DNA of 64,000 bases from a bacterium (GCA_963692865.2 OY843592.1:672001-736000); one strand, 5' to 3'; numbered from the stretch's first letter, positions 3,412 through 21,452 are shown. The notes: generated by a model from the sequence alone, not told the origin. A program made the numbers and translations.

Positions 3412-3543
3412 GTGAGCACCTCCTCTTGCCCGTAACTAGAAACAAACAATATATGCCGAGTCTAGCAGAAATGAAGCTCTTCAGAGAAAGAGCGTTGACA
3501 TTAGATGAATTTGCATTCTGATATGAACAGCTTTCTGAAAGAC

Positions 3544-5437: not shown

Positions 5438-5606
5438 TGGTTTCTTCCAATGTATATACTTGGAAATACTCTGAGCGAGAGACGATTCCCCTCTATGTTA
5501 TAACAGGGAGTCGAATTGATTCCAGAATCATTCCTGTTCGTGCTGGTGAAACACATGAATTCAGTGAAAATTATCCAGCAAAGCACACAGATAAAGGAGA
5601 TGAAAG

Positions 5607-6311
5607 TTGCCAGATGAGAAAATCGCCGTCGTAACGGGCGGGAACAAAGGTATCGGTTTCGGGATCTGCCGATCGCTTGCAAAACAAGGGATAAGAACCA
5701 TCCTCACGGCGCGAGACGTATCCAAAGGTGAAATCGCTAAAGAGCAGTTAAAACAAGAGGGGCTGGAAATCATATTCCATCCCCTGGATGTCACCGACGG
5801 GAATAGCATCGATTCTCTAGCCCGCTTTTTGGCCAAAGAATTTGGAAAACTAGACATTTTAATCAACAACGCGGCCATCAGAAAAGATGCCGGGATGATG
5901 GGGTTGGACGTTCCCATCGAGATCTTCCGAGAAATGATGGAAACCAACCTCTACGGGCCGCTCATGATGTGCCAGACATTGGCTCCTCTTCTGAAAAAAA
6001 GCGCAGCAGGCAGAATCGTGAACCTCTCAAGCGGCATGGGCTCTCTCGCCAGCATGGGAGGAGGCTCTCCCGCATACAGAATCACCAAAACCGCTCTGAA
6101 TGCGATGACGAAAGTGCTGGCGAGTGAATTCCGAGGATCTGGCGTATTAGTGAATTGTTGTCATCCAGGATGGGTGAGAACCGACATGGGCGGTCGGGGC
6201 GCCTCTAAATCAATAGACGAAGGAGCGGATACGCCTGTATGGCTCGCTTTGTTGCCAAAAAATGGGCCTACCGGAGGGTATTTCCAGGACAGAAAGCCCA
6301 TGCCTTGGTAG
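5607..6311 (+). CDS. short-chain dehydrogenase/reductase (carbonyl reductase-like)
   Basis: TGGNKGIG, NNAA, YRITK, HPGWVRTDMGG. Confidence 0.9.
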   Translation: MPDEKIAVVTGGNKGIGFGICRSLAKQGIRTILTARDVSKGEIAKEQLKQEGLEIIFHPLDVTDGNSIDSLARFLAKEFGKLDILINNAAIRKDAGMMGLDVPIEIFREMMETNLYGPLMMCQTLAPLLKKSAAGRIVNLSSGMGSLASMGGGSPAYRITKTALNAMTKVLASEFRGSGVLVNCCHPGWVRTDMGGRGASKSIDEGADTPVWLALLPKNGPTGGYFQDRKPMPW

Positions 6312-6424
6312 AAGGCGTGTTTATTTCATCACGTAGCTGGTGTTCGGTAGGCAGGTGTCTGGTGATTGCTTCGATGAAAAAATATTGAGAGGCGTTAATT
6401 ATCGATTTAGTCGGCTTTTATAAA

Positions 6425-7000
6425 TCAAGCCGATGTTTTTGCATAATCCCATCCCGTAACAAACAATTTCACCTCGCCGGTTGATTCCTCATATTTATAG
6501 CGAGTTAACTTGGCGAGATCATCACCATAGACATGAATACCCACCACAGGCTCAGTTGAAGCACAACTTACGCGATGCGCATCTTTATCTTTCGTACAGC
6601 AGACGAAAACATCTCCGGGCCCGGCCAGGCGTTTGCCTAGAGGCGTGAGTTTTACGCGGGCGCCGCTCTCGCGGGGACCTTCACGCAAAAAACTCTCTTC
6701 GTTTTCCGTTCCCCGGTAAATGCCTATCACTCCCCAGGTGCCGTGATCATGAATCGGGGTGGTCTGACCCACATCCCATATACCGGCGCCAACAGAAAAG
6801 CTCTCATCCGGCTCGACATGAATCCGGTTGAGCGTAAAACCTTCTTTTTTCACTAACAGCTGATCGGCATTCAAGAGGTTCGGCTCATCCAAAATTGGCT
6901 CAAGGGCCGTCACAACATGAGCCGTCACTTCTTCTTCGGTACCGCCAGTCTGTACAATTTCACGTACTTGGTCGATAAAATCCTTCATCTTTTTAGACAT
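6425..7000 (-). CDS. cysteine/3-mercaptopropionate dioxygenase-like cupin
   Basis: TPIHDHGTWG, DAHRV and IHVYG motifs of thiol dioxygenases. Confidence 0.8.
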   Translation of the reverse strand: MSKKMKDFIDQVREIVQTGGTEEEVTAHVVTALEPILDEPNLLNADQLLVKKEGFTLNRIHVEPDESFSVGAGIWDVGQTTPIHDHGTWGVIGIYRGTENEESFLREGPRESGARVKLTPLGKRLAGPGDVFVCCTKDKDAHRVSCASTEPVVGIHVYGDDLAKLTRYKYEESTGEVKLFVTGWDYAKTSA

Positions 7001-7048
7001 CTTTCATCCCCCAAGTTTTAGGATGCGTCCAAGCGAAATTCGTACGTC

Positions 7049-7600
7049 CTACATTTTATGATTCATCTCATGGACCAAGAGAGCCAACTTCAAAGATACG
7101 CTGCTTGCGAATCCACCGAGCTCGCCCGAGCCCGCGGTGACTCGATGTCATGGTATTATAAGCGGAACGGGATTTCTATGAAGCGCCTGGCCGACGGCGC
7201 GTGAAGCATTTGGGTTTCCAATCTGATTCGCCACCCAGCCGTAGGAGCGCGTCTCGCCATAAGGAATTTTTTCCGTCTCCTTGAGCACCTTGGTCATAAA
7301 TGGCGTGAGAGAGGAGATATCTGTCTTCAACTTGAAATTTTTTCGGGCGCCTTCAAGATATTCTTCTATCTCTTTTGAAGCTCGACGACTCAACGGTGTT
7401 GATTGCTCCTTTGCATGATTCGCCGCGAGAAGTTTTTCCACTCCATTCAACATTCTTATTTCTGCAATGCCCTTATCCGATACAAACACGGAGAATTCCG
7501 CACGCACTTTCTGAAGCCACTCGGCTACATGATTTTCCAGCGATTCTCCATCTTGCCGGAACAACTCACCCTGTTGCCATCCATCTACCCGGCGCGCCAT
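7049..7600 (-). CDS. ogt: methylated-DNA--protein-cysteine methyltransferase, selenocysteine-containing (in-frame TGA 7148-7150)
   Basis: IPYGETRSY, ASRAVGQA, NPVPLIIP then TGA-CAT-CGA-GTC = U-H-R-V (canonical PCHRV), continuing GELGGF...KLALL.HE to TAG at 7049. Confidence 0.88.
7108..7144 (-). promoter_or_regulatory. SECIS-like stem-loop 3' of ogt UGA
   Basis: mRNA CGAGUCACCG-CGGGCUC-GGGC-GAGCUCG-GUGGAUUCG; G-led apical loop ~21 nt after the UGA. Confidence 0.7.
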
Positions 7601-7623
7601 CTCAAATTCTCCTGTTCATGCCG

Positions 7624-8820
7624 CTAAAACGCCGTGGCCACTCCTCTTACATAGGCCTGTCCCGTTCTTAAGCGCAAGATCTGATTCGTTCCATCCGAAT
7701 GCAAGAACGTGCTGGCATCACGAAGATATTTCTCCATGGGCGCATCGTGCATAATGCCTGCGCCACCGAATACCTCCATGCCCAGGCGCGCGCAATCAAA
7801 GGCGACCTCCGAAGCGAAAACTTTGCACTTCCATCCTTGCGTGAAATCATAGGGCTTTTGATGATCCACCGCCCAGGCGGTGCGCCAGATGTACGTGCGC
7901 GCAATGTCCAGATTCATCGCCATATCGGCGAGAATAGTTTCTATCGCCTGGTGTTGCCCGATGGGCTTGCCGCCCTGGACGCGTTCGCGGCTGTAGGCGA
8001 GCGCTTTCTCGAAAGCGGCGCGTCCGACACCCAAGGCCGTGGCGGCTGCTTCGGGTTTTCCCATCGCCAGCAGATTGCCTCTGATTTCGAACATATTCCC
8101 TTCGCCCAGGATAATGTGGTTCTCGGGGATCTCGACGTCTTCATAGAAAATTTCTGAATTCATCGAAAGTCGCTGGCCAATTTTTTCATGCACTTCGCCT
8201 ATCGATACGCCGGGTGTCTCTCTAGGCACCAGAAAGCCGGTCAAGCCTTCTCTCAAGCTTTTGCTGAGGTCGGTTCTCGCCGCCAAAACGTACAACGACG
8301 CGACAGGGCCATTGCTGACATAGCGCTTTTCCCCATTGATGATCCATTTGCCGCCCTCTTTCTCCGCGCGCGTATAAAGCGCAATGGAGGGATCGTCGTA
8401 ATATCCCTGATGGTCGGTTCCCGCTCCCTCTTCCGTCATGGAAATCGCAGCCAGGAATCTGGGGTCTTCACACAGGCGTTTTATCCAGGGATCTCTGACT
8501 TCAGGCTCTACCTTTTCGAATATATGGGACAGCTTCCATGTCTGATCCAGGTTCACCGCAAAACCCAGATCTCCCACGGCAAGCTCCTCCCCCGCCAGAC
8601 AACAAGAAAGCACGTCGGCATCCATTCCGCCATATTCTTTGGGATAGGGAAGCTGCCTTAAACCCAAAGCGCTTGCTTTTTCGGTCAAATCCCACGGCAT
8701 CCGCTCTTCCCAGTTCTGAATCCGGTCACGCTCGGGAGCCACCGGAGCCAGTTCTTCACCAGCAAATTTTCTGGCTATTGTCTGAATTTGTATTTGTTCT
8801 TCATTCAATGTGAATTCCAT
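7624..8820 (-). CDS. acyl-CoA dehydrogenase
   Basis: SMTEEGAGTD, INGEKRYVSNG, ERVQGGKPI, FGGAG...EKYLRDA, GTNQI; start MEFTL with RBS GGAGGAG. Confidence 0.92.
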   Translation of the reverse strand: MEFTLNEEQIQIQTIARKFAGEELAPVAPERDRIQNWEERMPWDLTEKASALGLRQLPYPKEYGGMDADVLSCCLAGEELAVGDLGFAVNLDQTWKLSHIFEKVEPEVRDPWIKRLCEDPRFLAAISMTEEGAGTDHQGYYDDPSIALYTRAEKEGGKWIINGEKRYVSNGPVASLYVLAARTDLSKSLREGLTGFLVPRETPGVSIGEVHEKIGQRLSMNSEIFYEDVEIPENHIILGEGNMFEIRGNLLAMGKPEAAATALGVGRAAFEKALAYSRERVQGGKPIGQHQAIETILADMAMNLDIARTYIWRTAWAVDHQKPYDFTQGWKCKVFASEVAFDCARLGMEVFGGAGIMHDAPMEKYLRDASTFLHSDGTNQILRLRTGQAYVRGVATAF

Positions 8821-8895
8821 GCACACTCCTCCCGTCAATCATCCCCTGAAAGCGAGGCAAATGATACGATTCTCTTTAAGGAAAACAAAAGCGCA

Positions 8896-9279
8896 TCATG
8901 AAGAACAAGACAATGCGCGATTGGCCGCAGCCATCTCCATGACGCCGGGCGGTCTGCCGACGCCTGCGACAAAAGCGGCATCCGCTCCCGCCATTTCTAG
9001 CTGAAGAACAGATTCGTTCAAATCTGCATTTGGTGATAGCGATATGCCTCGCCTCGAAGGCATGTCTGTTTTTGCGACCTCTCCCACCTTTTGAAAAACC
9101 TCGGGCACACGAAGAAACTCATCCAGGTCTTTTTTGCTTACAACGCCAACCAAGCGATTTTCATCAAAAACAGCCGCCCAAGGCGAGTTTATCCTGTTCA
9201 TGGCCGTCCAAGCTTCTCTGGCGTCCTCCTCCACCCCAACAATCGCTACCGCCTGCAAAAAACACTCCCGAACCTTCAT
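8896..9279 (-). CDS. CBS-domain protein
   Basis: MKVRE..., VFDENRLVGVVSKKDL CBS pattern. Confidence 0.7.
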   Translation of the reverse strand: MKVRECFLQAVAIVGVEEDAREAWTAMNRINSPWAAVFDENRLVGVVSKKDLDEFLRVPEVFQKVGEVAKTDMPSRRGISLSPNADLNESVLQLEMAGADAAFVAGVGRPPGVMEMAAANRALSCSS

Positions 9280-9977
9280 CGAGCGATTTTCTCGGCCACC
9301 GACAGAAAACCAAAGCGCGGCATTGCTTCAATTTTCAAAAACGTTGATTTCATCGCTTTTAGTCTTTCCGGTGGATGTTGGGCGATTTCACTGGCCAGAT
9401 CACATGTTACCCTCATCAGGTCTATTTTCGATGTGAGGCGATTCACCAATCCTAAGCGATATCCCTCTCGCGCATCAAATCTTCTGCCGGTGAGCACCAA
9501 ATCCTTTGCTGATGGAATAAAAATCTGCCGCGTCAGACGAACGGTGGCGTCTCCTCCAGGAAATACGCCCATCGCAGTCTCCGGATATCCCAAAACGGCG
9601 CCCTCCACCGCAACACGAATATCGCATGAGAGCATCAACACCATCCCCCACCCGAAAGCGGGCCCGTTTACCGCTGCTATGGTCGGGATGGGCAGTTCAC
9701 GAAGGGCCGTACTCCACCTCTCGCCCAACATCATGAAGCGTTTCGCTTGTTCTTTCGTATGGGTAGCGCTTTCCTTAAGGTCGCGTCCTGAAGAAAAAGA
9801 CGTTCCTGAGCCGATTACAATAAGGACTTTAATATCTGGTGTCCTTTTAATTTCATCCATCTCCCTGCACATGGCTTCCATCAATGGCGTGTTGAATGCG
9901 TTTCGCGTTTCCGGACGATTCACGGTGATGATCGCAACATGGGATTCGATATGTGTGATGATCAGGCCTTTATCCAT
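9276..9977 (-). CDS. enoyl-CoA hydratase/isomerase family protein
   Basis: NRPETRNA, FSSGRDLKE, AAVNGPAFGWG, PETAMGVFPG; start moved to MDKGL because the longer ORF start crosses a terminator. Confidence 0.88.
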   Translation of the reverse strand: MDKGLIITHIESHVAIITVNRPETRNAFNTPLMEAMCREMDEIKRTPDIKVLIVIGSGTSFSSGRDLKESATHTKEQAKRFMMLGERWSTALRELPIPTIAAVNGPAFGWGMVLMLSCDIRVAVEGAVLGYPETAMGVFPGGDATVRLTRQIFIPSAKDLVLTGRRFDAREGYRLGLVNRLTSKIDLMRVTCDLASEIAQHPPERLKAMKSTFLKIEAMPRFGFLSVAEKIAR

Positions 9978-9991
9978 GTTTCGCCACAATG

Positions 9992-10023
9992 AAAAAAAAA
10001 GCCCGTCCCCTGAGGGACAGGCT
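9992..10023 (-). terminator. rho-independent terminator between the two crotonase paralogs
   Basis: Minus strand AGCCTGTCCC-TCAG-GGGACGGGCT followed by a run of T. Confidence 0.7.
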
Positions 10024-10050
10024 CGATGTATCATGGAAATTGGAAAGTCT

Positions 10051-10833
10051 TTATTCTCCGGTAAACACAGGTTTTCTCTTTTCTCTGAACGCCGCCAGCG
10101 CCTCGGCGAAATCCTTGGTGTGATTCAAAGGCAATCTGTGAGCGTTGGAAAACTCGACGGCCTGAGCGAGCGGCATATCGAGCGTTTGATCGATCACTTT
10201 TTTCGCGCTACGAACCCCCAAGGGGCCATTATCTCTTATCTTCTCCGCTATGGCGGTCGCTTCATCCATCAGCCTGTCCAGTGGATGCGCTTTGTTCACC
10301 AAACCAATACGCTCCGCTTCTTTTCCATCGATTCTCTTGCTCGTGTAAACCAATTCTTTCGCCTGTCCGGCCGGCATGATTCTTTGGAGCCAGACTACGC
10401 CACCTGCCCCGGGGAAGATTCCCAGGCTGCATTCCGGAAAACAAAGAGTAGCTTTTTCCGCGGCCAGTCTGATATCGCATACCAAGGTGATTTCCACGCC
10501 CCAGCCGAACGTATGACCGTTGATAGCGGCGATGGTGGGCATGGGCAAGCGTTCCCATAGCGACGTCGCCGTCATCACGTAGCGCTGGTATTGATCGGCC
10601 ATCTCCTTCGTATGCGTTGTGCTTTCTTTCAGGTCGCGGCCCGTGCTGAAACCACGTCCCTCGCCGGTGAGGATGACCACGCGCACGTTTTGTGCATCGG
10701 CCAAGGTTCGCGTCAATTCCACGAATTCTTCCGCCATCTTGAAGCTGATCGCGTTCAGGCTCTCCGGACGGTTGAACTTCACTACCGACAATCCATCTTC
10801 TTCCGTATAGGATAACGTTTCAAATTCGCGCAC
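10051..10833 (-). CDS. enoyl-CoA hydratase/isomerase family protein
   Basis: NRPESLNA, FSTGRDLKE, AAINGHTFGWGVE, PECSLGIFPG, AFREKRKPVFTG; paralog of adjacent gene. Confidence 0.92.
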   Translation of the reverse strand: MREFETLSYTEEDGLSVVKFNRPESLNAISFKMAEEFVELTRTLADAQNVRVVILTGEGRGFSTGRDLKESTTHTKEMADQYQRYVMTATSLWERLPMPTIAAINGHTFGWGVEITLVCDIRLAAEKATLCFPECSLGIFPGAGGVVWLQRIMPAGQAKELVYTSKRIDGKEAERIGLVNKAHPLDRLMDEATAIAEKIRDNGPLGVRSAKKVIDQTLDMPLAQAVEFSNAHRLPLNHTKDFAEALAAFREKRKPVFTGE

Positions 10834-10873
10834 GCGTCCCCTCCTGGAAAATATCTTTTCAACTCGATTCGGA

Positions 10874-11416
10874 TCAGCTTTTCAGATGGCTGGCCACTTC
10901 TTCGACAAACTTGAGTGTCGTGTCTCTCATTTCATCAGGCTGTAAATTGCTGACCGGGTGAGGCAACTGAATATAGGGATGGCCTTCCATACCCTTTCCG
11001 CGGAACTGAAAGTCCGCCGCATTCTTGAACGCCTCGGTGATAATGGTCGTCGAAGGAACGCCCCGTTTTTCAAATTCAACCGTGTCGTGCACACTGCACA
11101 ACGTGCAGGAGCCTCAGCCCCCCAATGCGGCTATCGCCACATCCACCTCCTGGGCCATTTCTTCAATCATTTCATCAGTGGCAGGCTTCGAGTAATGCTC
11201 TTTGCGCCGCGAGATGACTCTGGCCACGTCGAACTGCTCACGCAGGGCATTACCAAGAGTTTCCAAAATGATATCCGCTTGTTCTTTCGTGTTATCGAGG
11301 AGCCCCACCACCTTTCCCGAAAGATCGCCGGGCCGTTGCGCAAGCTCGATTCGCGCGGCCGATCCTCCCGCCGTCGGATCAATGAATCCCATTCCGTTCG
11401 CCATGGTTTTCTCCAT
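10874..11416 (-). CDS. UGSC-family selenoprotein (in-frame TGA 11114-11116)
   Basis: ORFs 11114..11416 and 10874..11101 share a frame; readthrough gives AIAALGG-U-GSCTLCSVHDTVEFEKRGVP. Confidence 0.88.
11084..11102 (-). promoter_or_regulatory. SECIS-like stem-loop 3' of UGSC UGA
   Basis: GUUGUGCA-GUG-UGCACGAC hairpin following an 11-nt spacer after UGA; G-led loop. Confidence 0.7.
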
Positions 11417-11599
11417 ATGATATGTGAATTCAACCGAGGCTAAATCATATCCCGCAATTCATTCCTTGTCTACGATATCAGCCTTTTCGTTCTTTTCATG
11501 AAAATGCGAATGATGTTTTTTCCGCTTCTCAGTTTCGCGGATTTTTGGCAAAATCAAGTCTAATTTACAGCAATCCTCTTAACCTTAAGGAGCAGACAA

Positions 11600-13861
11600 A
11601 TGGCCGATTACGATATCATCGGCAAGTCGAATGTTCGATACGACGCTATTCCGAAAGCGGATGGCTCCATGCCCTATGGAGAGGACGCGATACCCGCAGG
11701 CGCCTTACAGTGCGGCGTACTGTTTACGCCCATCCCCGTAGGCCGCCTGAAAAAACTCGACACTTCTAAAGCCGAAAAAATCCCGGGCGTAGCCGCCATT
11801 CTAACTGCAAAAGATATTCCGGGCACAAACGCGCGATTCGGCTCCGGAACACCGGGCCTGCCCCATCAACCGGTTCTGGTGGAAGATAAAATCGAATTTA
11901 CGGGAGACGCTCTCGCCATCGTAGGCGCCGAAAACAGAGAAGCGCTTGACGCCGCCATCGCGGCCATCGAGGTGGAAATCGAGGCGGAAGAAGGCGTGTG
12001 GACAACGCGTCACGATGAAACGAGCGCCGAGAAACGCCAGGCGTGTGATTTCGAGGCCACCCGCGGTGACATCAAAACCGCGTTCGATGAAGCCGACGTG
12101 GTGGTTGAGAAAACATACACCACGCAACTTGCCGAGCACGCCTTTCTGGAACCCGCTTCCGGTACCTCCTGGATGGAGGAAGACGGCGTTATCACAATCC
12201 GCGTCGGCACACAGCTTATTGAATACTATCGAGCCATTGCGGCGATTTTGGGAATCTCGCATAGCCGCGTCCGCCACCTCGGCACTTACGTCGGCGGCGG
12301 ATTCGGCGCCAAGGGTATGTTGACCGTAGAGCCTTACCTGGCGCTGCTTACATGGCATACACAAAGGCCAGCGGTAATGGTACTGGGTCGCGAGCACGGC
12401 ATCAGAAATACCTCGAAAAAACATCCTTTCTATATGAAATACAAAACAGGAGCGACCAAGGACGGGAAAATCCTTGCCGTAGAAGCGGATATCGTGGGCG
12501 ATGCAGGCGCCTATCCGTATAAGTCCAATCTATTCCTCCTGGGCGCGATGTGCATCGCCGCGGGTCCTTACGATGTCCCCAACGTAAAAATACGCGCGCA
12601 CGGCTATCTCACCAACAATCCCATCACCAACGCGATGCGCGGTGTCGGATCAAATCAAGTCTGCTTCGCATATGAGACCCAAATGAATCTGGTTGCAGAC
12701 GCCATCGGGATAGATAAATACGAATTCAGGCGCAAGAATTTCATCCAGAAAGGCCAGGAACTGCCGACCGGGCAGGTAATTCCTTACGAACCGAACCTGG
12801 AAGGATGCCTCGACGGCGCGCTTCAGGCATTGGGCGAACCTACAGAACCAGGGCCGGGCAAACGCATTGGCAGGGCGGCGGCGGCGAACATCACCGGCTA
12901 CGGAAGGCCGAATGACGACGCGAATGCGGCGGTTCACCTTGAGCCGGATGGCAGCGCCGTTGTCCGCGTAAGCGCGCCGGACATAGGCGCCGGCCAGGGC
13001 GCTACTCTCCAAAGCATCACGGCGGAAACCCTCGGACTCAGGCTAGATCAGGTTTCAACCCGTCTGTCCGATTCTGCTACTACGCCGCTCTCGGGCATCA
13101 CTGCAGGTTCTCGCCAAACACTCATGGCTGGGCACGCCGTTCAACTTGCCGCAGACGAAGTTCGAAAAGCCGTTACCAAAGGCGCCGCTTCGTTGCTCGA
13201 GGCTGCAGAAGAGGACATTCGCCTTGGAGGCGGCGAGGCATGGGTGGCCTCCGCTCCCGAGAGAATAGTTGGCATCGGTGCTGCGGCTGGCGAAGCCAAA
13301 AAAATGGGTGAATCGCTACATTGCACTCATGGCTACAACATGCCGGGACATGATTATGAGAATCCGGAGCGATACATGAACGGTATGGGCGGATGGTCGG
13401 ACTACACTTTTGGCGTTCATGCAAGTGAAGTGGAAGTCGACATCGAAACCGGCGAAGTGAATCTCTTGAAGCACATCGCTTCCCACGATGTCGGACGAGC
13501 GCTGAATCCTCAAAGCGTGGAGGGGCAATTCGAAGGCGGTGCGGTAATGGGAATTGGCTATGCGCTGCACGAGGAAATCACCATGGTGGAAGGAGACTGC
13601 CGATCACAAAGCTTTCACGAATACCTGATTCCCACCTCATCGGATATAGGCGAATTTGAGTCCGTCGTCCTCGAATGCGGGGAAGGGGCAGGCCCATATG
13701 GCGCACGCGGCGTCGGAGAACCTCCGTGCAATAACGCACCGGCCGCCGTCGCCCTCGCCATCAACGATGCGATAGGCACAGAAGTCTACGACCTCCCCAT
13801 CACGCCCGAGCGAGTCTGCTGGGCGGTAACAAAGAAAAACGGTAAAAGCAACGGTCATTAA
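11600..13861 (+). CDS. xanthine dehydrogenase/CO dehydrogenase-family molybdopterin-binding large subunit
   Basis: EHAFLEP, VGGGFGAKG, AMRGVG, DIGAGQG, AGSR, DVGRALNP..VEGQFEGG, GARGVGEPP. Confidence 0.92.
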   Translation: MADYDIIGKSNVRYDAIPKADGSMPYGEDAIPAGALQCGVLFTPIPVGRLKKLDTSKAEKIPGVAAILTAKDIPGTNARFGSGTPGLPHQPVLVEDKIEFTGDALAIVGAENREALDAAIAAIEVEIEAEEGVWTTRHDETSAEKRQACDFEATRGDIKTAFDEADVVVEKTYTTQLAEHAFLEPASGTSWMEEDGVITIRVGTQLIEYYRAIAAILGISHSRVRHLGTYVGGGFGAKGMLTVEPYLALLTWHTQRPAVMVLGREHGIRNTSKKHPFYMKYKTGATKDGKILAVEADIVGDAGAYPYKSNLFLLGAMCIAAGPYDVPNVKIRAHGYLTNNPITNAMRGVGSNQVCFAYETQMNLVADAIGIDKYEFRRKNFIQKGQELPTGQVIPYEPNLEGCLDGALQALGEPTEPGPGKRIGRAAAANITGYGRPNDDANAAVHLEPDGSAVVRVSAPDIGAGQGATLQSITAETLGLRLDQVSTRLSDSATTPLSGITAGSRQTLMAGHAVQLAADEVRKAVTKGAASLLEAAEEDIRLGGGEAWVASAPERIVGIGAAAGEAKKMGESLHCTHGYNMPGHDYENPERYMNGMGGWSDYTFGVHASEVEVDIETGEVNLLKHIASHDVGRALNPQSVEGQFEGGAVMGIGYALHEEITMVEGDCRSQSFHEYLIPTSSDIGEFESVVLECGEGAGPYGARGVGEPPCNNAPAAVALAINDAIGTEVYDLPITPERVCWAVTKKNGKSNGH

Positions 13862-13875
13862 CAGGCTTCGATCAC

Positions 13876-13909
13876 AAAAGAGCCCCGGCAATTTTGTCGG
13901 GGCTCTTTT
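13876..13909. terminator. bidirectional rho-independent terminator
   Basis: AAAAGAGCCCCGGCAA-T-TTGTCGGGGCTCTTTT-type inverted repeat between convergent genes. Confidence 0.85.
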
Positions 13910-14035
13910 CTAAAGAAATGCACAAAACATTGCTGTTAACTCAAAGAGTAGACCGAAAAGAGTCCTTTTCGAGATTTTGAGATGTGTTGCTGAAAATCCG
14001 GTCTTCTGATCATCATTTCTTGGAAAGAAAACTTA

Positions 14036-15055
14036 TCATAAGTCAAAATTTTTTGTCACCGCCCGACACGCCACCGTAATTCCGTGCATGACCATGCTGG
14101 AAGGCGAACCCCTGCTTCCTGCGACGATTAAATGAAGATCTTCGGGATCGCCAACCGCAGGCACAAAAAAATCATCATCTTTCACATCCACGGGAAACGG
14201 CCAACGATCCGCGCCTTTCTCGCCCCGCCAGATACCGCCGCGCTTGATATCCCCTATAGTGCGCCCACCCATTTCCAGTAATTTTTGATGGACATCACTA
14301 CGAGTCATTCCGGCGTCAGCGCAAAGATGCGCATGTTGCGCACCCAGGACAACCGCCATATCCGCTTGCCGATACATATTGGGTCCGCCCAGTGCGGACA
14401 TCATATCGGCAACCGTCGCAAGAAGCCGGTCGGGAGTCAGGCTCGCATCGTCCCACACCTGCACTGGCCCTTCGAGAGGAATCATGGTCACCACATTATC
14501 GCTCTTCGAAAACCCTTTCGATTCCGCATACGACTCCCAGGGCGATTCCTCCTCGTTCTCCCGGATGCAAAAGGTGTTTCGCCAGGGGCCGCCAAAACCG
14601 CCGAGACAGGTGATTCCGGGGATGCCTCCACCCACATTCATCATGATGAGCCGCACGGCGCGGCCGATGGTCAGATTCGCCCGAAAGCCGGGTCCCATGC
14701 AGCCCACGCCGCCGTGCAGACCGATCTCCCTGGCGTAGGGGCCATTCACCAACAGAAAAGGCGCGCCCGCACTCGTCGTGGCCTGAATCAGATTTACGTT
14801 GAAACGCTCATCAAGAAGCGCTTCCAGTCCAGCTATCAGCACAGGTATGTACTCGGGCCTACAACCCGCCATCACGGCATGGGCCGCCAGACTCTGGATG
14901 CTGAGTTCTCCCCCAGCCGGAGCTACTTGGCCAAGTACTTCACCCGGCTCCCTTTTGGTTCCCGAGAGCATCAAAGCGATTCTCTCTTCCGTCGGAGTCA
15001 CGACAGGCAGGCCGTCCGACCATTCTTTGTCAAAGAAAAACTCAAACTCATCCAT
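14036..15055 (-). CDS. uncharacterised 'WSDGLP' protein (UGSC-associated type), paralog 4
   Basis: WSDGLPVVTPTEER, AVMAGCRPEY, GCMGPGFRANLTIGRAVRL, ENEEESPW. Confidence 0.8.
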   Translation of the reverse strand: MDEFEFFFDKEWSDGLPVVTPTEERIALMLSGTKREPGEVLGQVAPAGGELSIQSLAAHAVMAGCRPEYIPVLIAGLEALLDERFNVNLIQATTSAGAPFLLVNGPYAREIGLHGGVGCMGPGFRANLTIGRAVRLIMMNVGGGIPGITCLGGFGGPWRNTFCIRENEEESPWESYAESKGFSKSDNVVTMIPLEGPVQVWDDASLTPDRLLATVADMMSALGGPNMYRQADMAVVLGAQHAHLCADAGMTRSDVHQKLLEMGGRTIGDIKRGGIWRGEKGADRWPFPVDVKDDDFFVPAVGDPEDLHLIVAGSRGSPSSMVMHGITVACRAVTKNFDL

Positions 15056-15090
15056 GTGCTCATCCTCAAAAGCAAGGCTGGCGGAAAGGC

Positions 15091-16107
15091 TTATGGTTGG
15101 TAGTCAGTCGAGACCGCTTCGCTGCCATCCACCCAGCCGGGCATGACGGCCGTCACCGGCCCGGGCGTACCGCCTGCGACGAGAAGTACCAGGTTATCTT
15201 CATCTTTAATCGCCGGCACCAGAAACGAATCATCCTGCAGGTTCACATCAAATGGCCACTTGGCTGCCATCTCATCACGCCAATAGCCCGATCTTTTCAA
15301 CTCGCCAAGGGGTCTGCGCGCAAGGCCCATAATTCTGTGATGAACATCTTTTTTGCTCAAACCAGCCTCCGCGCACATCCGCGCGTGGTCCGGCCCCAGG
15401 GCAACGACAATTTGGGTCTTCAGCCAGATGTTCAGCGAACCCAATGTGGATATTTTATCTGCTAATCCTACGAAAAAAGATTCCGGCTCCTTGGAATAAT
15501 CATCGATATATCCTTGGGGCGCTTCGGTCATCACGGCGGTTACAACATCGTCATCCAGATGAAATCCTCTCGTGACGGACAACGACTCCCATGGACTTTC
15601 CTCTTCGTTCTCGGCAATACAGAATGTATATCTGGCGGGAGAGCCGAAGGTGCTCATCGAGGCGAAAACCGGAACACCCCCACCCAGGTTCATGAGAATG
15701 AGCCGGATGGCGCGGCCAATCGTCGCATTCGCCCGAAAACCCGGCCCAAAGCACCCCGTGCCGCCGTGCAGACCGATTTTTTTCGCGTAAGGCCCATTCA
15801 CGATCATTAGAGGGGCCGCGCTGTGCATGGTTCCCTGAACGCCGTTCAAGTTGAGTTTCGGCGTGAGTAGCGCTCCAAGTCCTGCAATGACGACGGGCAA
15901 GTACGAAGGCTCGCACCCCGCCATCACGGCGTGAGCGGCAATCGCTTCAACTTTTGCTTCCCCCATGAGGGGCGGCACCAAACCGATGACTTCTGAAGCC
16001 CCAAGTCTTGTGCCTGAGAGCATGGAGGCCATTCGTTCTTGGGTTGGGGGAATAATCGGCAGGCCGTCCGACCAGGATTTTTGAAAGAAAAATTCGAATT
16101 CATCCAT
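15091..16107 (-). CDS. uncharacterised 'WSDGLP' protein, paralog 3
   Basis: WSDGLPIIPPT, AVMAGCEPSY, GCFGPGFRANATIGRAIRL. Confidence 0.8.
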   Translation of the reverse strand: MDEFEFFFQKSWSDGLPIIPPTQERMASMLSGTRLGASEVIGLVPPLMGEAKVEAIAAHAVMAGCEPSYLPVVIAGLGALLTPKLNLNGVQGTMHSAAPLMIVNGPYAKKIGLHGGTGCFGPGFRANATIGRAIRLILMNLGGGVPVFASMSTFGSPARYTFCIAENEEESPWESLSVTRGFHLDDDVVTAVMTEAPQGYIDDYSKEPESFFVGLADKISTLGSLNIWLKTQIVVALGPDHARMCAEAGLSKKDVHHRIMGLARRPLGELKRSGYWRDEMAAKWPFDVNLQDDSFLVPAIKDEDNLVLLVAGGTPGPVTAVMPGWVDGSEAVSTDYQP

Positions 16108-16148
16108 GGAAATATGACACCACTTTATCCATCGGGGCGACTCCGGCG

Positions 16149-17177
16149 CTACGCCTCATAGACCCCATGAACGGCGCGGCTGCCGCCGCTCCAGCCATGG
16201 CATACCGCGCTGCCCGATCCCCAGCCGCCCGCGACGATCAAGTGCAGGTCACGGGGGTCCTTGATGACGGGAACGAAAAACTCATCATCATCGGGGTCCA
16301 CGTGAATAAACATATCCAGCGCGCGTTCGCGCCGCCAGTTGCCGCCTCGTTTCAACTCCTTCACTTTGTGGCCTGCCAGCTCACAAAGCCGCCGATGCAC
16401 ATCCGCGCGCGCAAGACCGCCCTCGGAACAAATTTTCGCATGCTGGGGATTCATCGCGACGAGCATATCGGTTCTTGGCGCGTGCATGTTCCAGGAGCCC
16501 AAGCCCGTCATCGCATCGGCGATTCCCCGGAGCAGCCTCTCGGGCTCCTCGCTGACGTCATCGAAGGTCAGTCGCGGGCTTTCCACCATGGCCATGGTGA
16601 TAACGTTTTCATCCGCCCCGTATCCCCTGGATTCAGCGAGCGTCTCCCAGGGGTGAAACTGAAGGTTCTCCGTGACGCACGCGGTATAGCGCAGCGGCGT
16701 GCCGAAAATCGTCATGGAAGAAACGCCCGGGATGCCCCCGCCCAGGTTCATCAAAATCAGGCGAATGGCGCGGCCGATGGAAGCGTTGGCCCTGAACCCC
16801 GGGCCGAAACAGCCGTTGCCCCCGTGAATGCCGATTTTCTCGGAATACGGGCCGTTTACAATCATCAGGGGCGCTACGCCGTGCATCGTGCCCTGTACGC
16901 CGTTCATGTTGAACTCATCGCGAAGCATAAGCGTGGTGGCGCCGAGTACGACCGGCAGGTACTCGGGTTTGCAGCCCGCCATTACCGCATGAACCGCCAC
17001 GCTATGGACCGTGGCCTCGCCCATGGCGGGAGGAACCTGACCTATGAATTCGGCAGGATTTCTCTTCGTGCCCGAGAGCATGCGCTCGATGCGCTCTTCC
17101 GTCGGGGTGACGACGGGAAGGCCGTCCGACCAGGGTTTTTCCAGGAAAAACTCGAATTCATCTTGAGGAGCGTTCAA
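16149..17177 (-). CDS. uncharacterised 'WSDGLP' protein, paralog 2
   Basis: WSDGLPVVTPTEER, AVMAGCKPEY, GCFGPGFRANASIGRAIRL. Confidence 0.8.
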   Translation of the reverse strand: MNAPQDEFEFFLEKPWSDGLPVVTPTEERIERMLSGTKRNPAEFIGQVPPAMGEATVHSVAVHAVMAGCKPEYLPVVLGATTLMLRDEFNMNGVQGTMHGVAPLMIVNGPYSEKIGIHGGNGCFGPGFRANASIGRAIRLILMNLGGGIPGVSSMTIFGTPLRYTACVTENLQFHPWETLAESRGYGADENVITMAMVESPRLTFDDVSEEPERLLRGIADAMTGLGSWNMHAPRTDMLVAMNPQHAKICSEGGLARADVHRRLCELAGHKVKELKRGGNWRRERALDMFIHVDPDDDEFFVPVIKDPRDLHLIVAGGWGSGSAVCHGWSGGSRAVHGVYEA

Positions 17178-17206
17178 GCCCTTTCACCTTTTGAAGTATA
17201 TGGACA

Positions 17207-18241
17207 TCATGACGACGCAAATGCGCGGGAGACGGAACGGCTGCTCCCGTTCCAGCCGTGCATCACGGCCGTAATCGGGCCCGGAATCCCGCCCGCCACG
17301 ATCAAGATCAGCCTCCCGGCCTCTTTTATCGTCGGAACGAACGCGCCGTCATCGTCCAGATCGACGGGGAACGGAAAATCCCTGATGCGATTTTCCCTGA
17401 AATGCCCTCCCGTTTTGAGTTCGCCCACCGTGCGGCCCGCGATTTCGCAAAGGCGCCCGTGGACATCCGCCTTTGAATACCCCCTCTTTGCGCATATCGC
17501 GGCCTGCTGCGGGCTCATCGCCACCACCAGATCCGTGTTGGCCCAACAGTTCCACGAACCCAAATGCGACATGGTGTCCGCGATGGAGGGGAGCATGCGC
17601 TCGGGGTCGTCGCTCACGTCATCCCAGGACATGACGGGGCCTTCCACGTGCACGGCGGTGACGACGTTCTCCTCAACTTCAAAACCATGCGTCTGAGCGA
17701 GAGACTCCCAGGGGCTTTCCGCTTCATTCTCGGCGATGCAGTACGTGAACCTCCCCGGTTGGGAGAACGTGCTCATCGAGGTGATGCCCGGAATTCCGCC
17801 GCCAATGTTGAGCAGCAGAAGCCTGATGGCGCGGCCGATCGTCGCGTTGGCGCGATTCCCGGGGCCGAAACAGCCGAGCCCCCCATGCAGGCCGATTTCC
17901 CTGGCGTAGGGGCCGTTCACGATCAAAAGGGGGGCCGCGCAGGAGAGCGTCGCCTGAACGCCGCCCACGTTGAATTTTTCCTCCAGAATCGCCTCCACGG
18001 CCCCGACGAGAACCGGCATATACGCCGGCTTGCATCCGGCCATGACGGCGTGAACGGCGATGGTCCGAACGTCCGCTTGCGCCAGAAGCGGGGGCACGTC
18101 TCCGAGGACTTCATCCGGATCGCGGCTCGTTCCCGCCAGCATGAGTCCCAGGCGCTCTTCCGTCGGAGGGATGACAGGCAGGCCGTCGGACCAGGCTTGT
18201 TCAAAGAAATACTCGTACTCATCCACGGGAGGGGCGCTCAC
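17207..18241 (-). CDS. uncharacterised 'WSDGLP' protein, paralog 1
   Basis: WSDGLPVIPPTEER, AVMAGCKPAY, GCFGPGNRANATIGRAIRL. Confidence 0.8.
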   Translation of the reverse strand: MSAPPVDEYEYFFEQAWSDGLPVIPPTEERLGLMLAGTSRDPDEVLGDVPPLLAQADVRTIAVHAVMAGCKPAYMPVLVGAVEAILEEKFNVGGVQATLSCAAPLLIVNGPYAREIGLHGGLGCFGPGNRANATIGRAIRLLLLNIGGGIPGITSMSTFSQPGRFTYCIAENEAESPWESLAQTHGFEVEENVVTAVHVEGPVMSWDDVSDDPERMLPSIADTMSHLGSWNCWANTDLVVAMSPQQAAICAKRGYSKADVHGRLCEIAGRTVGELKTGGHFRENRIRDFPFPVDLDDDGAFVPTIKEAGRLILIVAGGIPGPITAVMHGWNGSSRSVSRAFASS

Positions 18242-18305: not shown

Positions 18306-18746
18306 CTATTTTTCGCTTTCGTCGATCAGCTTTTTCAGGTCCTCCGCCAACGGCGAGCGCAGAGCAACCAGCTTTTGGTAATCCCGCATGGCGGCGACCC
18401 GGTTCCCCCGCAGCAGATGGGCGACGCCCCGGTATTCGACGGCTTCGGCGTGTACCGGATTCACGGCCAAGGCCCTGTTGTACGCCGAAATGGCCTCATC
18501 GAGGCGGCCGAGGTGACGAAGGCTGTAGCCCATCAGGGTATGCGCCCTGAAGTCTTCGGGGTCCTCGGCGACCGCGAGGCGGAAATGCAAAAACGCCCTT
18601 TCCATGTCTCCGTTGTGAATGTGGACGCGGCCCAGTTCATACGCAGTGCCCGGATCCGCGGGCAACGGCTGTTTCGCCGGGTCGTACGCGACGGCGGAAA
18701 AAGCGGAGCCGAGAAGCAGGGCGAGAATGAGTGCGGTGATTTTCAC
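18306..18746 (-). CDS. secreted tetratricopeptide-repeat protein
   Basis: GTG start after GGAGG, signal peptide KITALILALLLGSAFSAVA, TPR helices (AHTLMGYSLRHLGRLDEAISAYNRAL). Confidence 0.8.
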   Translation of the reverse strand: MKITALILALLLGSAFSAVAYDPAKQPLPADPGTAYELGRVHIHNGDMERAFLHFRLAVAEDPEDFRAHTLMGYSLRHLGRLDEAISAYNRALAVNPVHAEAVEYRGVAHLLRGNRVAAMRDYQKLVALRSPLAEDLKKLIDESEK

Positions 18747-18937
18747 GTCTACGTTCCTCCCGAAACCAGAGTGGATTGGAAGCCATGACCTGGCGAAACC
18801 TTCGCCGGATGGTATACGCTTGCCGTCGAACATGTCGAGCAAATATACACGGGCGCCGGACGGATTGCGAGTCCATGCCGTTAGAATACGCCCGAGGTTA
18901 CATGTCGCAACCACCGCCAATCTACAGGAGCCGTTCC

Positions 18938-19324
18938 ATGCCGATTTACAGAAACCTCGCCGCCCGGAGCCAGGGAAAGGCGGCCGACTACGTCACCGCA
19001 AACGCCGCCTGGGTGGACGGCGCCCACGCCACCATCGGTTATTTCCGCATGGAGGCGGGAGGCCATTCCAGCCCGCACTATCACCACGACGAGCAGTTCT
19101 TGTATCTCCTCAAGGGCGGGCTTCGCATCGCCGTGGAAGGAGAGATTCTCGAAGCCGCGCCCGGGGATCTGGTGCAGTTCGCGCCCGGGGAGGTGCACGA
19201 GATCATGGCGCTCGACGAGCCCGTGGAGCTTCTGCTCACGAGGTCTCCGGCGAGGCCGAGCCTCGAGGCGCTCGCGGTGACGCCCGAAGGCGAGCGGGCC
19301 AGGAGCCTTTTGCGCCCCGAATAG
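18938..19324 (+). CDS. cupin-domain protein
   Basis: PHYHHDEQ...GDLVQFAPGEVH; RBS AGGAG before ATG 18938. Confidence 0.85.
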   Translation: MPIYRNLAARSQGKAADYVTANAAWVDGAHATIGYFRMEAGGHSSPHYHHDEQFLYLLKGGLRIAVEGEILEAAPGDLVQFAPGEVHEIMALDEPVELLLTRSPARPSLEALAVTPEGERARSLLRPE

Positions 19325-19564
19325 CCCCGAACGGGCATAACCCGTTAAAAAACAATCGGATAAATTTTCAGGAATTTATCGAAAAACGTCGTGAATTTAT
19401 ACAATTTTATCCAATTTTTCAGGAATTCCCTTGGGGCCCCGAAGAGGCCCGTTCCGGGCGGGCCGCGCGGGTCGATTCCGCCCGAAGAGGCGGGTCGATT
19501 CCGGCCGGCGCGGGAGGAATTGACGAGCGGACGGCCTCCTCACCCCGCGCGGCAGCCTCCCCAT

Positions 19565-19631
19565 CCGCCTCACCCTGAGTAGCCGCCGAAGGTCAAACGC
19601 GACTGAGAAAGAAGCGTTTGTATCGAAGGGC
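19565..19631 (+). repeat. palindromic repeat family A (CACCCTGAGTAGCCGCCGAAGG...GTATCGAAGGGC), uninterrupted copy
   Basis: Related copies at 20567, 26095, 29227, 33668/33875 and 40123. Confidence 0.75.
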
Positions 19632-19883
19632 GGGGGATTCGATTGCCGGCCGGGGAGGCGAATATCCTGCCGCCCGAAGCCGAATCGTCCGCTCCATTTT
19701 CTTTCCTCCTCCAATGGACGGGAGCGCCAATCGCGGCCCGCCCTTTCCGCCGGGGTCGATTTCCCGCGCGGGATTATTGCGCGCGCCGGCAAAAACCCAA
19801 TGACGCCAAATGCGGGGAAATGCGTCCCGATCTTTCAATGAACCCGGGGCTTTCCCTCCGCGACTGAATCCGGAACGACGGCG

Positions 19884-20354
19884 CTACCCGTTCACGTGCC
19901 AGACTTCGCGCATGGCGCAGCCGCCGGCCTTGAAGAGGTTGTAGACCGGGCACCTGCGGAAATAATCCGCCTTGAGCGCCTCCACCTGCTCTTCCGTCGC
20001 GTCGATATCGAGCCATATCTCGCTGCGCGCCTCGCTGGGGTTCGACTGGTAGCCCTCCCGGCCGGCGATGCCCCTGGGGCTGTAGACGATAGTGGACTTC
20101 ACCTTGAGGGAGTCGATTTCGAGCTTCGCGTCCTTGGCGCATCTCTCCAGAATCACCGCCGTACACCCGGCGAGCGAATTGACGAGATAGTCCATGGGTG
20201 AGGGAGCCTCGCCCGAGCCGCCCAGATGCCCGGGCTCGTCCATCACCAGGGTATACCCGCGCATGAGAGTCATGATGCTCTTCGAGCGCCCCTTGAAGTC
20301 GGCTTCCGCCCAGTTCTCCGTGGTTTCCGGCAGTTCCTTCGGCCGAATCGCCAT
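19884..20354 (-). CDS. OsmC/Ohr-family protein
   Basis: DEPGHLGG, PSPMDYL..SLAGC, RRCPVY (both Cys present). Confidence 0.88.
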   Translation of the reverse strand: MAIRPKELPETTENWAEADFKGRSKSIMTLMRGYTLVMDEPGHLGGSGEAPSPMDYLVNSLAGCTAVILERCAKDAKLEIDSLKVKSTIVYSPRGIAGREGYQSNPSEARSEIWLDIDATEEQVEALKADYFRRCPVYNLFKAGGCAMREVWHVNG

Positions 20355-20566
20355 GATTTGCGCTCCTTCTGATGATGAGAAATGAAAATTCCTTACCGGC
20401 GACGACACCGCGCGGGTCGCCCTTGAAGACTACCGTTGCATACGCGAGGCTCAATCGTCCGCGTCTTGTAGCAGGGGATTCTGGAAATGGTCAAATTCTC
20501 GTCTTGCATCGCCGCCGTATCGACCTCGCCCCGAGTAGCGCCGCGGCCGCCAGATACTCTTCCCCC

Positions 20567-20668
20567 CACCCTGAGCAGCCGCGCAGCGGCGTATCGAAGG
20601 GCCTGTTCCGAGTCTGTCGAAGTGGCGCTCCCTTGATACGGCCCCTTACGGGGCCTGCTCGGGACGAG
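20567..20668. repeat. family A inverted doublet
   Basis: CACCCTGAGCAGCCGCGCAGCGGCGTATCGAAGGG ... CCTTGATACGGCCCCTTACGGGGCCTGCTCGGGACGAGG. Confidence 0.7.
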
Positions 20669-20798
20669 GAGAAAACACCCCCTTCTTCTCCCGGGAGGGA
20701 GCGGAGGGGCAGAAACAGGCCCCCGCGCCTGTCCGAGGCCGCGGCCCACCCCTCCAGCGACAGGCCAACTGCATCTCATGCAGGGGCGGCGCTCGCAC

Positions 20799-20834
20799 AA
20801 AAAAACCGCCCCGCTCCCCGGAGGGAACGAGGCG
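20799..20834 (-). terminator. rho-independent terminator after bcp
   Basis: Minus strand CGCCTCGTTCCC-loop-GGGAGCGGGGCG followed by T run. Confidence 0.65.
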
Positions 20835-20855
20835 ATGAGGATTTGAAAAACTCGC

Positions 20856-21314
20856 CTAAAGCGCTTTCAGCACGTCCTTCGTGTGCCCGGCCACCTTGAC
20901 GTCCTTGAACACCTTCTCGATGACGCCGGTCTCGTCGATGATGTAGGTGGTGCGGAAGATGCCGTTGAACTTCTCGCCGAACAGCGTCTTCTCCCCGTAC
21001 GCCCCGTATTTCGAGGAGATCAATCCGTCGGGGTCCGCCAACAGGGTGAAGTCGAGCTCCAGTTGCTCGGAGAACTTCTTGTGGCTGACCTCGTTGTCGG
21101 GACTGACGCCGATTACGGTCGCGTTCTTCTTCTGGATCTTCTGCAGTTGCTTGTTGAAGTCCCGCGCCTCCGCCGTGCATCCGGGCGTGTTGTCCTTCGG
21201 GTAGAAGTAGAGCACCACCTTCTGGCCCTTGTATTTCGAGAGCCGGTGCACCTTGCCGTTTTCATCCCTCAAGGCGAAGGCGGGGGCTTTCACTCCTTCT
21301 TTCAGCGCTGCCAT
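20856..21314 (-). CDS. bcp: peroxiredoxin Q / bacterioferritin comigratory protein
   Basis: VVLYFYPKDNTPGCTAEA, RTTYIID. Confidence 0.92.
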   Translation of the reverse strand: MAALKEGVKAPAFALRDENGKVHRLSKYKGQKVVLYFYPKDNTPGCTAEARDFNKQLQKIQKKNATVIGVSPDNEVSHKKFSEQLELDFTLLADPDGLISSKYGAYGEKTLFGEKFNGIFRTTYIIDETGVIEKVFKDVKVAGHTKDVLKAL

Positions 21315-21452
21315 TTCGCCCCCCTGTCGTTGCAGTCCTGGAATCAAAAAAACCACGCGCCTGATTACGCATGTTTGGGATATTGCAGGAATAATCGACG
21401 TTCGGGTGATTATAATGCCATAGATGAGAAGAGACTTCAAGCGTCGTCGGAG

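Follow-up and report, generated by a model that had tools for sequence, protein, structure and literature searches.

Proteins containing the UGSC motif, a name given by Zhang and Gladyshev, have been listed since 2007-2008 as one of the selenoprotein families met most often in metagenomes of oceans and fresh waters. In the passages of them available to us, a 2008 paper (PLoS Genet, PMC2398784), a 2022 review and a 2026 review all list the family as uncharacterised. The text of the 2008 paper and the legend to its figure S1A report a fusion of UGSC with "Unknown_1", a conserved domain of unassigned function that is found in aquatic organisms both fused to UGSC and free-standing; the same paper guessed that UGSC has a thioredoxin-like fold (PMC2398784). 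Among the published UGSC passages that we found, only those of 2008 mention a partner domain, and none gives an account of the partner family, its size, its co-diversification with UGSC or its other redox fusions. Here, we analyze a stretch of bacterial DNA of 64,000 nucleotides (nt), GCA_963692865.2 OY843592.1:672001-736000 (referred to as the window, with positions counted from its start), in which a UGSC gene lies close to a tandem array of four paralogous genes. The family of the four is unnamed, and we use "W" (WSDGLP) as its working label.

We find that W and UGSC are partners: adjacency, gene fusion, a common phyletic pattern and mirrored trees establish this about as well as comparative genomics allows. 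A preliminary description of the window had spoken of an undescribed system. This was too strong, since the UGSC-Unknown_1 fusion was already in print in 2008 and the pairing is therefore not wholly new; in the passages available, Unknown_1 behaves as W does, being both fused and free-standing, although the identity of the two is not confirmed (PMC2398784). From the fusions, the conserved residues and weak homology, we propose that UGSC and W may form a two-component reductase dependent on thiols or selenols, a reading to which we assign a probability of roughly one half.

The W array and the UGSC gene

Array and selenoprotein gene lie on the same strand, with an inverted molybdenum (Mo) enzyme gene between them. 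Genes were called by codon-usage score, as plain longest open reading frame (ORF) calls gave antisense artefacts. The main features are as follows (aa, amino acids; Sec or U, selenocysteine; SECIS, selenocysteine insertion sequence).

17207..18241, minus strand: paralogue A, W family, 344 aa, ORF without internal stop
16149..17177, minus strand: paralogue B, W family, 342 aa, ORF without internal stop
15091..16107, minus strand: paralogue C, W family, 338 aa, ORF without internal stop
14036..15055, minus strand: paralogue D, W family, 339 aa, ORF without internal stop
11600..13861, plus strand: Mo hydroxylase large subunit (xanthine dehydrogenase / aldehyde oxidase family), with Pfam domains Ald_Xan_dh_C, MoCoBD_1 and MoCoBD_2
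10874..11416, minus strand: UGSC-family selenoprotein, 180 aa, Sec at residue 101 (GGUGSC), TGA read as U; the TGA stop at 10874-10876 is included
11114..11116, minus strand: in-frame UGA read as Sec (TGA in frame, 79 conserved residues beyond it)
11084..11102, minus strand: SECIS-like hairpin, 8-bp stem with GUG loop, starting 11 nt past the UGA

The four intact, co-oriented genes of about 340 aa set 30-40 bp apart that the preliminary description had reported are indeed present, at 338-344 aa and with spacers of 29 (A/B), 41 (B/C) and 35 nt (C/D). In an alignment of the four, B, C and D are 53-56% identical to A, which rules out that the four co-oriented paralogues arose by chance. About 115 columns are invariant, including those of WSDGLP, PT, HAVMAGC, NGPY, HGG.GC.GPG.RAN..IGRA.RL, EN and PW, and short loops differ from copy to copy, so that the alignment bears out the common motifs and variable loops noted earlier. 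The ratio of nonsynonymous to synonymous substitution rates (dN/dS), a check proposed at the time, places all four copies under purifying selection (0.05-0.11; A, 0.07-0.11; B, 0.05-0.08; C, 0.08-0.10; D, 0.05-0.07), and the gene order UGSC-Mo-D-C-B-A is conserved in four other species of the genus.

W is a large family without a name. Paralogues A to D match no family in Pfam or NCBIfam (0 for all four), and the best match of a W profile to sequences of the PDB has an E value of 1.5. A word-indexed search gave 7527 relatives among 8000 scored candidates, every one of them unnamed or "hypothetical" and none with a precomputed Pfam domain. A profile built from the 15 W copies of the genome matched 8005 clusters (50% identity) at E <=0.001, including 2460 at E <=1e-30, and the lineages represented span soil, groundwater and marine environments. 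The preliminary description had held that assignment to an already characterised enzyme family would count against it; no characterised family claims W.

The window UGSC does not differ from the described family, scoring 173.1 bits against PF24696 (cut-off, 25; E 7e-51) and 149.8 bits against NF041046 (cut-off, 125), and it belongs to both. Its dN/dS is 0.03-0.05. We compared the SECIS-like hairpin in eight UGSC orthologues, namely those of the window, of locus L011 and of six betaproteobacterial loci. All 8 pairs are unchanged in 8 of 8 orthologues, and the site comprises 21 consecutive invariant nucleotides, with third codon positions varying on both sides. When the 70 nt after the UGA are folded whole, they are no more stable than shuffles (z 0.32); the evidence for a SECIS element is therefore the local hairpin and its conservation. 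A tRNA-Sec and SelB (391.7 bits against a cut-off of 242) are likewise encoded in the genome, and hairpin, tRNA-Sec and SelB together indicate that the means to decode UGA as Sec are present. Of the two tRNA-Sec genes, the first is on the main contig (C1:1207500-1207596) and the second on a 50-kb contig (C4:29715-29811); the latter may be a duplicate or lie on a foreign contig, the assembly contamination estimate being 6.69%.

All eight UGSC genes of the genome have an in-frame TGA, every UGSC match listed for the phylum has exactly one, and the TGA occupies the same codon position in 56 of the 73 UGSC matches in the 80 other loci described below. The predicted model of the window protein (mean predicted local distance difference test score [pLDDT], 92.3) has five beta-alpha units, with Sec placed between strand 3 and helix 3. 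Its best Foldseek matches are G domains, flavodoxin-like proteins and a phosphotransferase system (PTS) IIB protein, with template modelling scores (TM) of at most 0.51, and no thioredoxin-fold protein is among the matches listed. Since these are generic alpha/beta matches only, they give no support to the thioredoxin-like fold guessed in 2008; the model instead suggests five beta-alpha units of the flavodoxin-like kind. A UGSC profile matched only ArsA among PDB sequences, at E 0.019.

Genomic association of W and UGSC

By tblastn, the genome holds 15 W genes and 7 UGSC genes, to which Pfam adds an eighth UGSC gene. All eight of the latter lie within 3 kb of a W gene and seven are directly adjacent to one, the sole exception being the window UGSC, with the Mo gene between. 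The two families are also joined in a single protein of the genome:

L009:9662-11269 (G000:C1 ~327662-329269), minus strand: UGSC-W fusion selenoprotein (GVUGGC), read as one continuous frame across one TGA

Immediately after this fusion comes another W gene (L009:8624-9655).

Fusions are frequent in the family at large. Among the top 150 W cluster representatives, we scanned the 74 longer than 400 aa and found UGSC sequence in 47. Whole N-terminal UGSC domains are present in 17; 26 start with the UGSC portion downstream of the Sec codon, which would be expected if a gene caller restarts past the TGA; and 4 have the opposite domain order, ending at the C terminus with the part that precedes the Sec codon. 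Other thiol-redox modules occur in 4 of the 74, and 23 have no Pfam match. A search for fusions among longer proteins from the UGSC side gave 1 protein; fusions were found from the W side instead. In addition, two W domains are present in six proteins of 709-741 aa and in one of 616 aa.

To survey neighbourhoods, we took one genome per species, giving 580 W relatives, and used the best 80 loci, in which UGSC was sought with purpose-built hidden Markov models on six-frame translations. A UGSC gene lies on the same strand within 700 nt of W in 66 of the 80 loci, downstream in 55 (W then UGSC) and upstream in 11 (UGSC then W). These loci cover Pseudomonadota, Chloroflexota, Methylomirabilota/Rokubacteria, Acidobacteriota, Binatota, Actinomycetota and others. 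Locus L011, which has no adjacent UGSC gene, carries three tandem W genes with a UGSC gene 3.9 kb downstream, the same layout as in the window. Across 51 genomes of the phylum, W and UGSC were found in the same 43, and their tallies by family and genus are identical; because these genomes are kin, this co-occurrence represents only a few independent events. The preliminary description had spoken of a family often adjacent or fused to UGSC and without assigned function, and had called for co-occurrence and fusion analysis: the 66 of 80 loci and 47 of 74 long proteins bear this out, as a strong genomic association with natural fusions. One betaproteobacterial metagenome-assembled genome has three separate UGSC-W pairs of three subtypes in a single 10-kb stretch (L015, 5266-14785), interleaved with TctC, TauD, amidase and ComA-like genes.

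We next compared the phylogenies of the two families, using FastTree for W and a short IQ-TREE search for UGSC. The four window paralogues are not recent duplicates, and all fall within one fully supported clade of 15 members, "group 1". Paralogue A is sister to the three tandem copies of L011. Paralogue B is sister, with 100% local support, to UGSC-adjacent W genes from Betaproteobacteria (L020, with 74% identity, L014, L015 and L025). Paralogue D groups in the same way, again at 100% local support, with L013 and the two UGSC-adjacent genes L012 and L019. Paralogue C lies inside the group. In the UGSC tree, the window protein belongs to a fully supported clade of eight, whose other members are the L011 UGSC and six UGSCs adjoining group-1 W genes, which are relatives of B and D. 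Further W and UGSC pairs match across the trees (L005-L046, L006-L015, L004-L044 and L007-L052). The trees thus mirror each other, and the window UGSC is, by its placement, the type that partners the array's branch of W. The paralogue phylogeny proposed earlier as a check therefore joins B and D to UGSC-adjacent genes and A to the L011 copies.

These trees also bear on whether the closeness of UGSC and array in the window is incidental, the two being unrelated. The preliminary description had noted correctly that the UGSC gene follows on the strand of the array across an inverted Mo gene. That gene is convergent with the array and divergent from the UGSC gene, which is 2.6 kb from the array; since UGSC heads its own minus-strand run beyond the divergent gene, it is not co-transcribed with the array, a refinement of the earlier picture. 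Separate transcription units with a gene between them are what incidental closeness would predict. Yet the other members of the window UGSC's clade adjoin group-1 W genes, no other UGSC of the genome belongs to that clade, against seven W genes of group 1, and the layout recurs in L011, a different lineage, and in the four other species of the genus. We consider it very unlikely that the two are unrelated. That one UGSC serves four W proteins is our inference only; it fits the trees, the 7:1 ratio of group-1 W to UGSC genes in the genome and the W-W proteins.

A putative two-component reductase and its alternatives

Besides UGSC, the following modules were found fused to W, all of them of the thiol-redox kind. 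P0152 has a pyridine-nucleotide disulfide oxidoreductase domain (Pyr_redox_2) and is thioredoxin-reductase-like, P0204 and P0226 have peroxiredoxin-like AhpC-TSA/Redoxin domains, and P0209 has a ferredoxin-thioredoxin reductase catalytic chain; P0250 and P0271 carry N-terminal CxxC domains. This pattern points to a cysteine of W as a redox or nucleophilic residue fed with electrons by its partner. The candidate is the cysteine of the MAGC motif (C70 in A), at least 90% conserved in sets of 86 and 85 sequences, next to an invariant G69. Conservation over these 85-86 sequences extends to DGLP..PT, (M)AGC, NGP, G.G.RANATIGRA.RL, PW, a VAGG at the C terminus and a second cysteine that precedes ENE. 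Paralogue A was modelled by AlphaFold with 86 sequences; the model is very confident (pLDDT, 95.8; predicted TM score, 0.94) and places C70 between helices H58-68 and H72-85.

On these grounds, W would be the substrate-binding catalytic subunit, with its nearly invariant MAGC cysteine predicted between two helices, and its G.RANATIGRA motif could bind an anionic group. UGSC would be a small alpha/beta protein with Sec as part of a U-x-x-C motif where a helix begins. The protein may deliver reducing equivalents or attack the enzyme-bound substrate, ending as a selenenyl-sulfide that the thioredoxin system could re-reduce. In catabolic clusters, the pair might reduce or reductively cleave a small organic acid, an amine or a coenzyme A (CoA) ester in a thiol- or selenol-dependent reaction. 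In the window, the four W proteins would probably act as hetero-oligomers or alternative complexes drawing on the single UGSC, the least supported step of the proposal; the double-domain W-W proteins fit a hetero-oligomer.

The setting of W genes is consistent with such a role. For the 80 loci, ORFs up to 7 kb from W were clustered, and the cluster representatives were annotated; the recurrent neighbours are listed below (FMN, flavin mononucleotide).

Family III CoA-transferase: 14 of 80 loci; in the genome, L004 and L007
Luciferase-like monooxygenase: 13 of 80 loci
Short-chain dehydrogenase: 12 of 80 loci
TctC binding protein: 10 of 80 loci
Acyl-CoA dehydrogenase: 9 and 4 of 80 loci; in the genome, the window and L005
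NHL-repeat protein: 9 of 80 loci
TauD dioxygenase: 8 of 80 loci
FMN dehydrogenase: 7 of 80 loci
Enoyl-CoA hydratase: 5 of 80 loci; in the genome, the window and L004
Amidase: 5 of 80 loci; in the genome, L008

By these annotations, W loci are catabolic clusters that handle small organic acids, amines or sulfonates, in many cases as CoA esters. The pair occurs in the cultured bacteria Candidimonas nitroreducens (L043, where it adjoins a family III CoA-transferase) and Parapusillimonas granuli (L051), so genetics and biochemistry are possible.

The frequent CoA-transferases, enoyl-CoA hydratases and acyl-CoA dehydrogenases would also suit a W that performs no redox chemistry, being a hydro-lyase, an isomerase or another enzyme acting on carboxylates or CoA esters, with UGSC confined to an accessory role, either holding the W cysteine in reduced form or regulating the enzyme by redox state. 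Six of the 17 whole fusions retain the W cysteine next to a UGSC domain lacking Cys and Sec, and W genes can stand without an adjacent UGSC, both of which would be expected under such a model. The structural matches lean the same way, the weak best ones being class I fumarate hydratase, an Fe-S serine dehydratase and cyanuric acid hydrolase-type enzymes. These matches are not significant, however. Foldseek of the W model against the PDB gave 0 matches at E <=0.001, the best having E 2.7e-3 and TM 0.31 and the best rows (class I fumarate hydratase and cyanuric acid hydrolase-type enzymes) TM of ~0.2-0.3; VIA-align against 48,161 chains gave a best Z of 5.1 over 92 residues, below the tool's meaningful level. 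By these comparisons the modelled W fold would have no recognisable solved relative, which does not in itself prove the fold novel. Moreover, Sec is kept in 56 of the 73 UGSC matches, which would be costly for a mere accessory, and the tight co-diversification of the two families, like the joining of W to four different thiol-redox modules, suggests that the reaction takes up reducing equivalents. We therefore regard a non-redox W as unlikely.

Several observations weigh against a reductase of the kind proposed. At the motif level, the six whole fusions lacking Cys and Sec in UGSC (P0147, P0169, P0200, P0223, P0236 and P0253) and one UGSC of the genome that reads GHUGSS, without the second cysteine (L004:9454-10077, minus strand), indicate that a U/C-x-x-C redox relay is not universal; the nearest relative of the latter, L044_U9203, reads GHCGSS. 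W has no recognisable cofactor site or solved relative, and the contact between U101 and the W cysteine is purely conjectural. No similarity links W to the N-terminal region of GrdB or to the GrdE/PrdA-like protein, and the window UGSC stays far under the TIGR01917 cut-off (17.9 versus 602.2 bits). At the level of gene organization, adjacent UGSC is missing at 14 of the 80 loci, though several of these are short contigs, and three group-1 W genes of the genome (L001, L002 and L003) stand alone; array and UGSC gene are separate, oppositely flanked units. Neighbours vary widely and the loci are not phylogenetically independent, so no substrate can be named. Finally, a whole-genome search in the genus found an in-frame stop in one array member in each of two relatives:

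G027:C4:863408-864430: array member with in-frame TAA
G016:C260:3108-4133: array member with in-frame TAG

Each may be a pseudogene or an assembly error; unless they are assembly errors, the four W copies are perhaps not all required.

The remaining genes around array and UGSC in the window are the following (annotated by Pfam unless stated).

10833..10051, minus strand: enoyl-CoA hydratase, the first gene after UGSC
10034..9276, minus strand: second enoyl-CoA hydratase
9279..8896, minus strand: CBS-domain protein
8838..7624, minus strand: acyl-CoA dehydrogenase; these four genes after UGSC span 7624..10833
11444..11472, minus strand: promoter-like site upstream of the UGSC start, weak, consensus match only (10/12 hexamer matches)
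13953..13972, minus strand: terminator-like hairpin just past paralogue D, weak, consensus match only
18920..18306, minus strand: TPR protein, upstream of the array
20408..19884, minus strand: OsmC-like protein
21440..20856, minus strand: AhpC/TSA peroxiredoxin

An enoyl-CoA hydratase also comes after the orthologous UGSC in L011. Promoter and terminator scans of the region gave counts not above those of shuffles, and terminator-like sites were fewer than in shuffles; it is by its position alone that the hairpin after D suggests a terminator.

The three domains of the Mo gene are all above their Pfam cut-offs. Among NCBIfam models, its best match is pucD (412 bits, cut-off 783), and no equivalog cut-off is reached. 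Its place between UGSC and array, in an order kept in the four other species of the genus, raises the idea that both serve this hydroxylase, perhaps as carriers of sulfur or selenium for its cofactor, and its NCBIfam matches include the selenium-dependent xanthine dehydrogenase model. The score against that model (380.8 bits) is far below the cut-off of 830, however, and there is no Mo-enzyme cluster among the recurrent neighbours of the 80 loci or at the other seven UGSC-W loci of the genome. Service to the Mo enzyme thus seems a far-fetched role for the pair.

Some other properties of the region deserve mention. The genes at 18306-21440 (minus strand), near the putative thiol/selenol enzyme, are of thiol peroxidase type. 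G+C content is 0.50-0.56 at positions 1-16000 and 0.58-0.69 (mostly >0.60) at 16001-64000; in the former part, genes such as UGSC, the Mo gene, C and D have low scores under a codon-usage model of the genome itself. The first 16 kb may be of foreign origin, yet they are syntenic in four other species of the genus. The window holds a second selenoprotein gene, for a homologue of methylated-DNA-protein-cysteine methyltransferase (7049-7600, minus strand; TGA at 7148-7150). With the TGA read as U, its active-site motif is IPUHRV; the table-11 ORF ends there, and the Pfam match ends at position 51 of 81. The published selenoprotein tables, in the parts available, include this methyltransferase as a known selenoprotein family.

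Comparison with Stickland reductases

The preliminary description had likened the system to component B of the Stickland reductases. For UGSC, the analogy has weak support in sequence. The genome's own UGSC proteins match selenoprotein B models weakly, GrdB with 4 of 7 proteins (best E 2.3e-4), GrdH and GrdF with 2 each and PrdB with 1, and the matches to GrdB-type models span the Sec region only (model positions 322-415). Aligned by hhalign, a UGSC profile places U on U both with the genome's GrdB-like selenoprotein (61 columns, E 8.3e-4, probability 24%) and with a PrdB-like protein (E 9.3e-3). The window UGSC scores 11.7 bits against TIGR01918 (cut-off, 65.45). It has 100 residues before Sec, against a GRDB region of ~340 residues in selenoprotein B, and that region is not present in it. 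UGSC and the Sec region of GrdB and PrdB are thus probably remote homologs, and UGSC is not a member of those families. The sequence of W lends the analogy no such support, as it resembles neither the GrdB N terminus nor GrdE/PrdA.

A classical pair is found elsewhere in the genome. A GrdB-like selenoprotein gene (L095, G000:C1:3118230-3119264; ...PATUGTG..., U350) lies 2 kb from a GrdE/PrdA-like gene of family PF09338 (L098, 3121299-3122453). The genome has three small PrdB-like genes in addition, one of which reads ...IPVUPLC...; loci L096 and L097 complete this set. For all 41 relatives of the GrdB-like protein, the gene call ends where the Sec codon lies (348-363 aa).

In PrdA and GrdE, cleavage at a cysteine yields a pyruvoyl group. 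A true Stickland analogue would therefore be a W that processes itself at G69/C70 to an amine-binding pyruvoyl, with the UGSC selenol cleaving a C-N bond. The resemblance of UGSC to the Sec segment of GrdB/PrdB and the conservation of G69 and C70 agree with this, some loci adjoin amidases, aminotransferases and amino-acid transporters, and the genome's own GrdB-like and GrdE/PrdA-like pair shows such chemistry in use. Against it, W is unlike PF09338 proteins: A and D have no Pfam match at E <=10, and hhalign with the genome's PF09338 protein gives a probability of 0.2. In pyruvoyl enzymes the cysteine lies in a strand-turn, whereas the modelled W cysteine sits between the two helices noted above, and the peroxiredoxin-like and thioredoxin-reductase-like fusions fit a plain redox cysteine as well. 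Self-processing of W to a pyruvoyl enzyme is accordingly improbable in our view.

UGSC thus has an obligate partner family with thousands of members, a confident predicted structure and no solved fold match. As this partner diversifies with UGSC, the question of UGSC function becomes tractable, namely, to find the reaction of a two-protein enzyme; the array, with only one UGSC beside it, offers a natural test case for one selenoprotein serving several partners. Only tentatively do we extend the reductase to a wider picture, in which W and UGSC would be a widespread selenium-dependent reductase family of a fold without solved relative, a non-fermenting counterpart of the Stickland reductases whose W subtype sets substrate specificity, with eight systems in this genome and the window UGSC common to a W hetero-oligomer or to alternative subunits. 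If this were true, one of the most abundant aquatic selenoprotein families would gain a function, and a hidden set of reductive steps would come to light by which small organic acids bearing nitrogen or sulfur, or their CoA esters, are broken down.

Among known enzymes, thiol-dependent reductases such as methionine sulfoxide reductase occur fused to their own reductant module, thioredoxin. They share with W the arrangement of a domain with one key cysteine fused to varied redox modules, but have no similarity to it. GrdE and PrdA (PF09338) fill the role proposed for W, that of the larger, substrate-binding partner of a Sec protein, again with no sequence similarity. UGSC in turn bears a weak likeness to selenoprotein B (GrdB, GrdF, GrdH and PrdB; TIGR01917, TIGR01918 and PF07355): both place Sec in a U-x-x-C/G loop that a beta strand precedes, and next come a helix, a strand with LE..G.PT and, later, an HP motif. 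Selenoprotein B is one part of a two-protein enzyme, as UGSC would likewise be; its partner is a PF09338 pyruvoyl protein, which W is not. In principle, UGSC may work like protein B of the glycine, betaine and proline reductases, paired with an unrelated partner.

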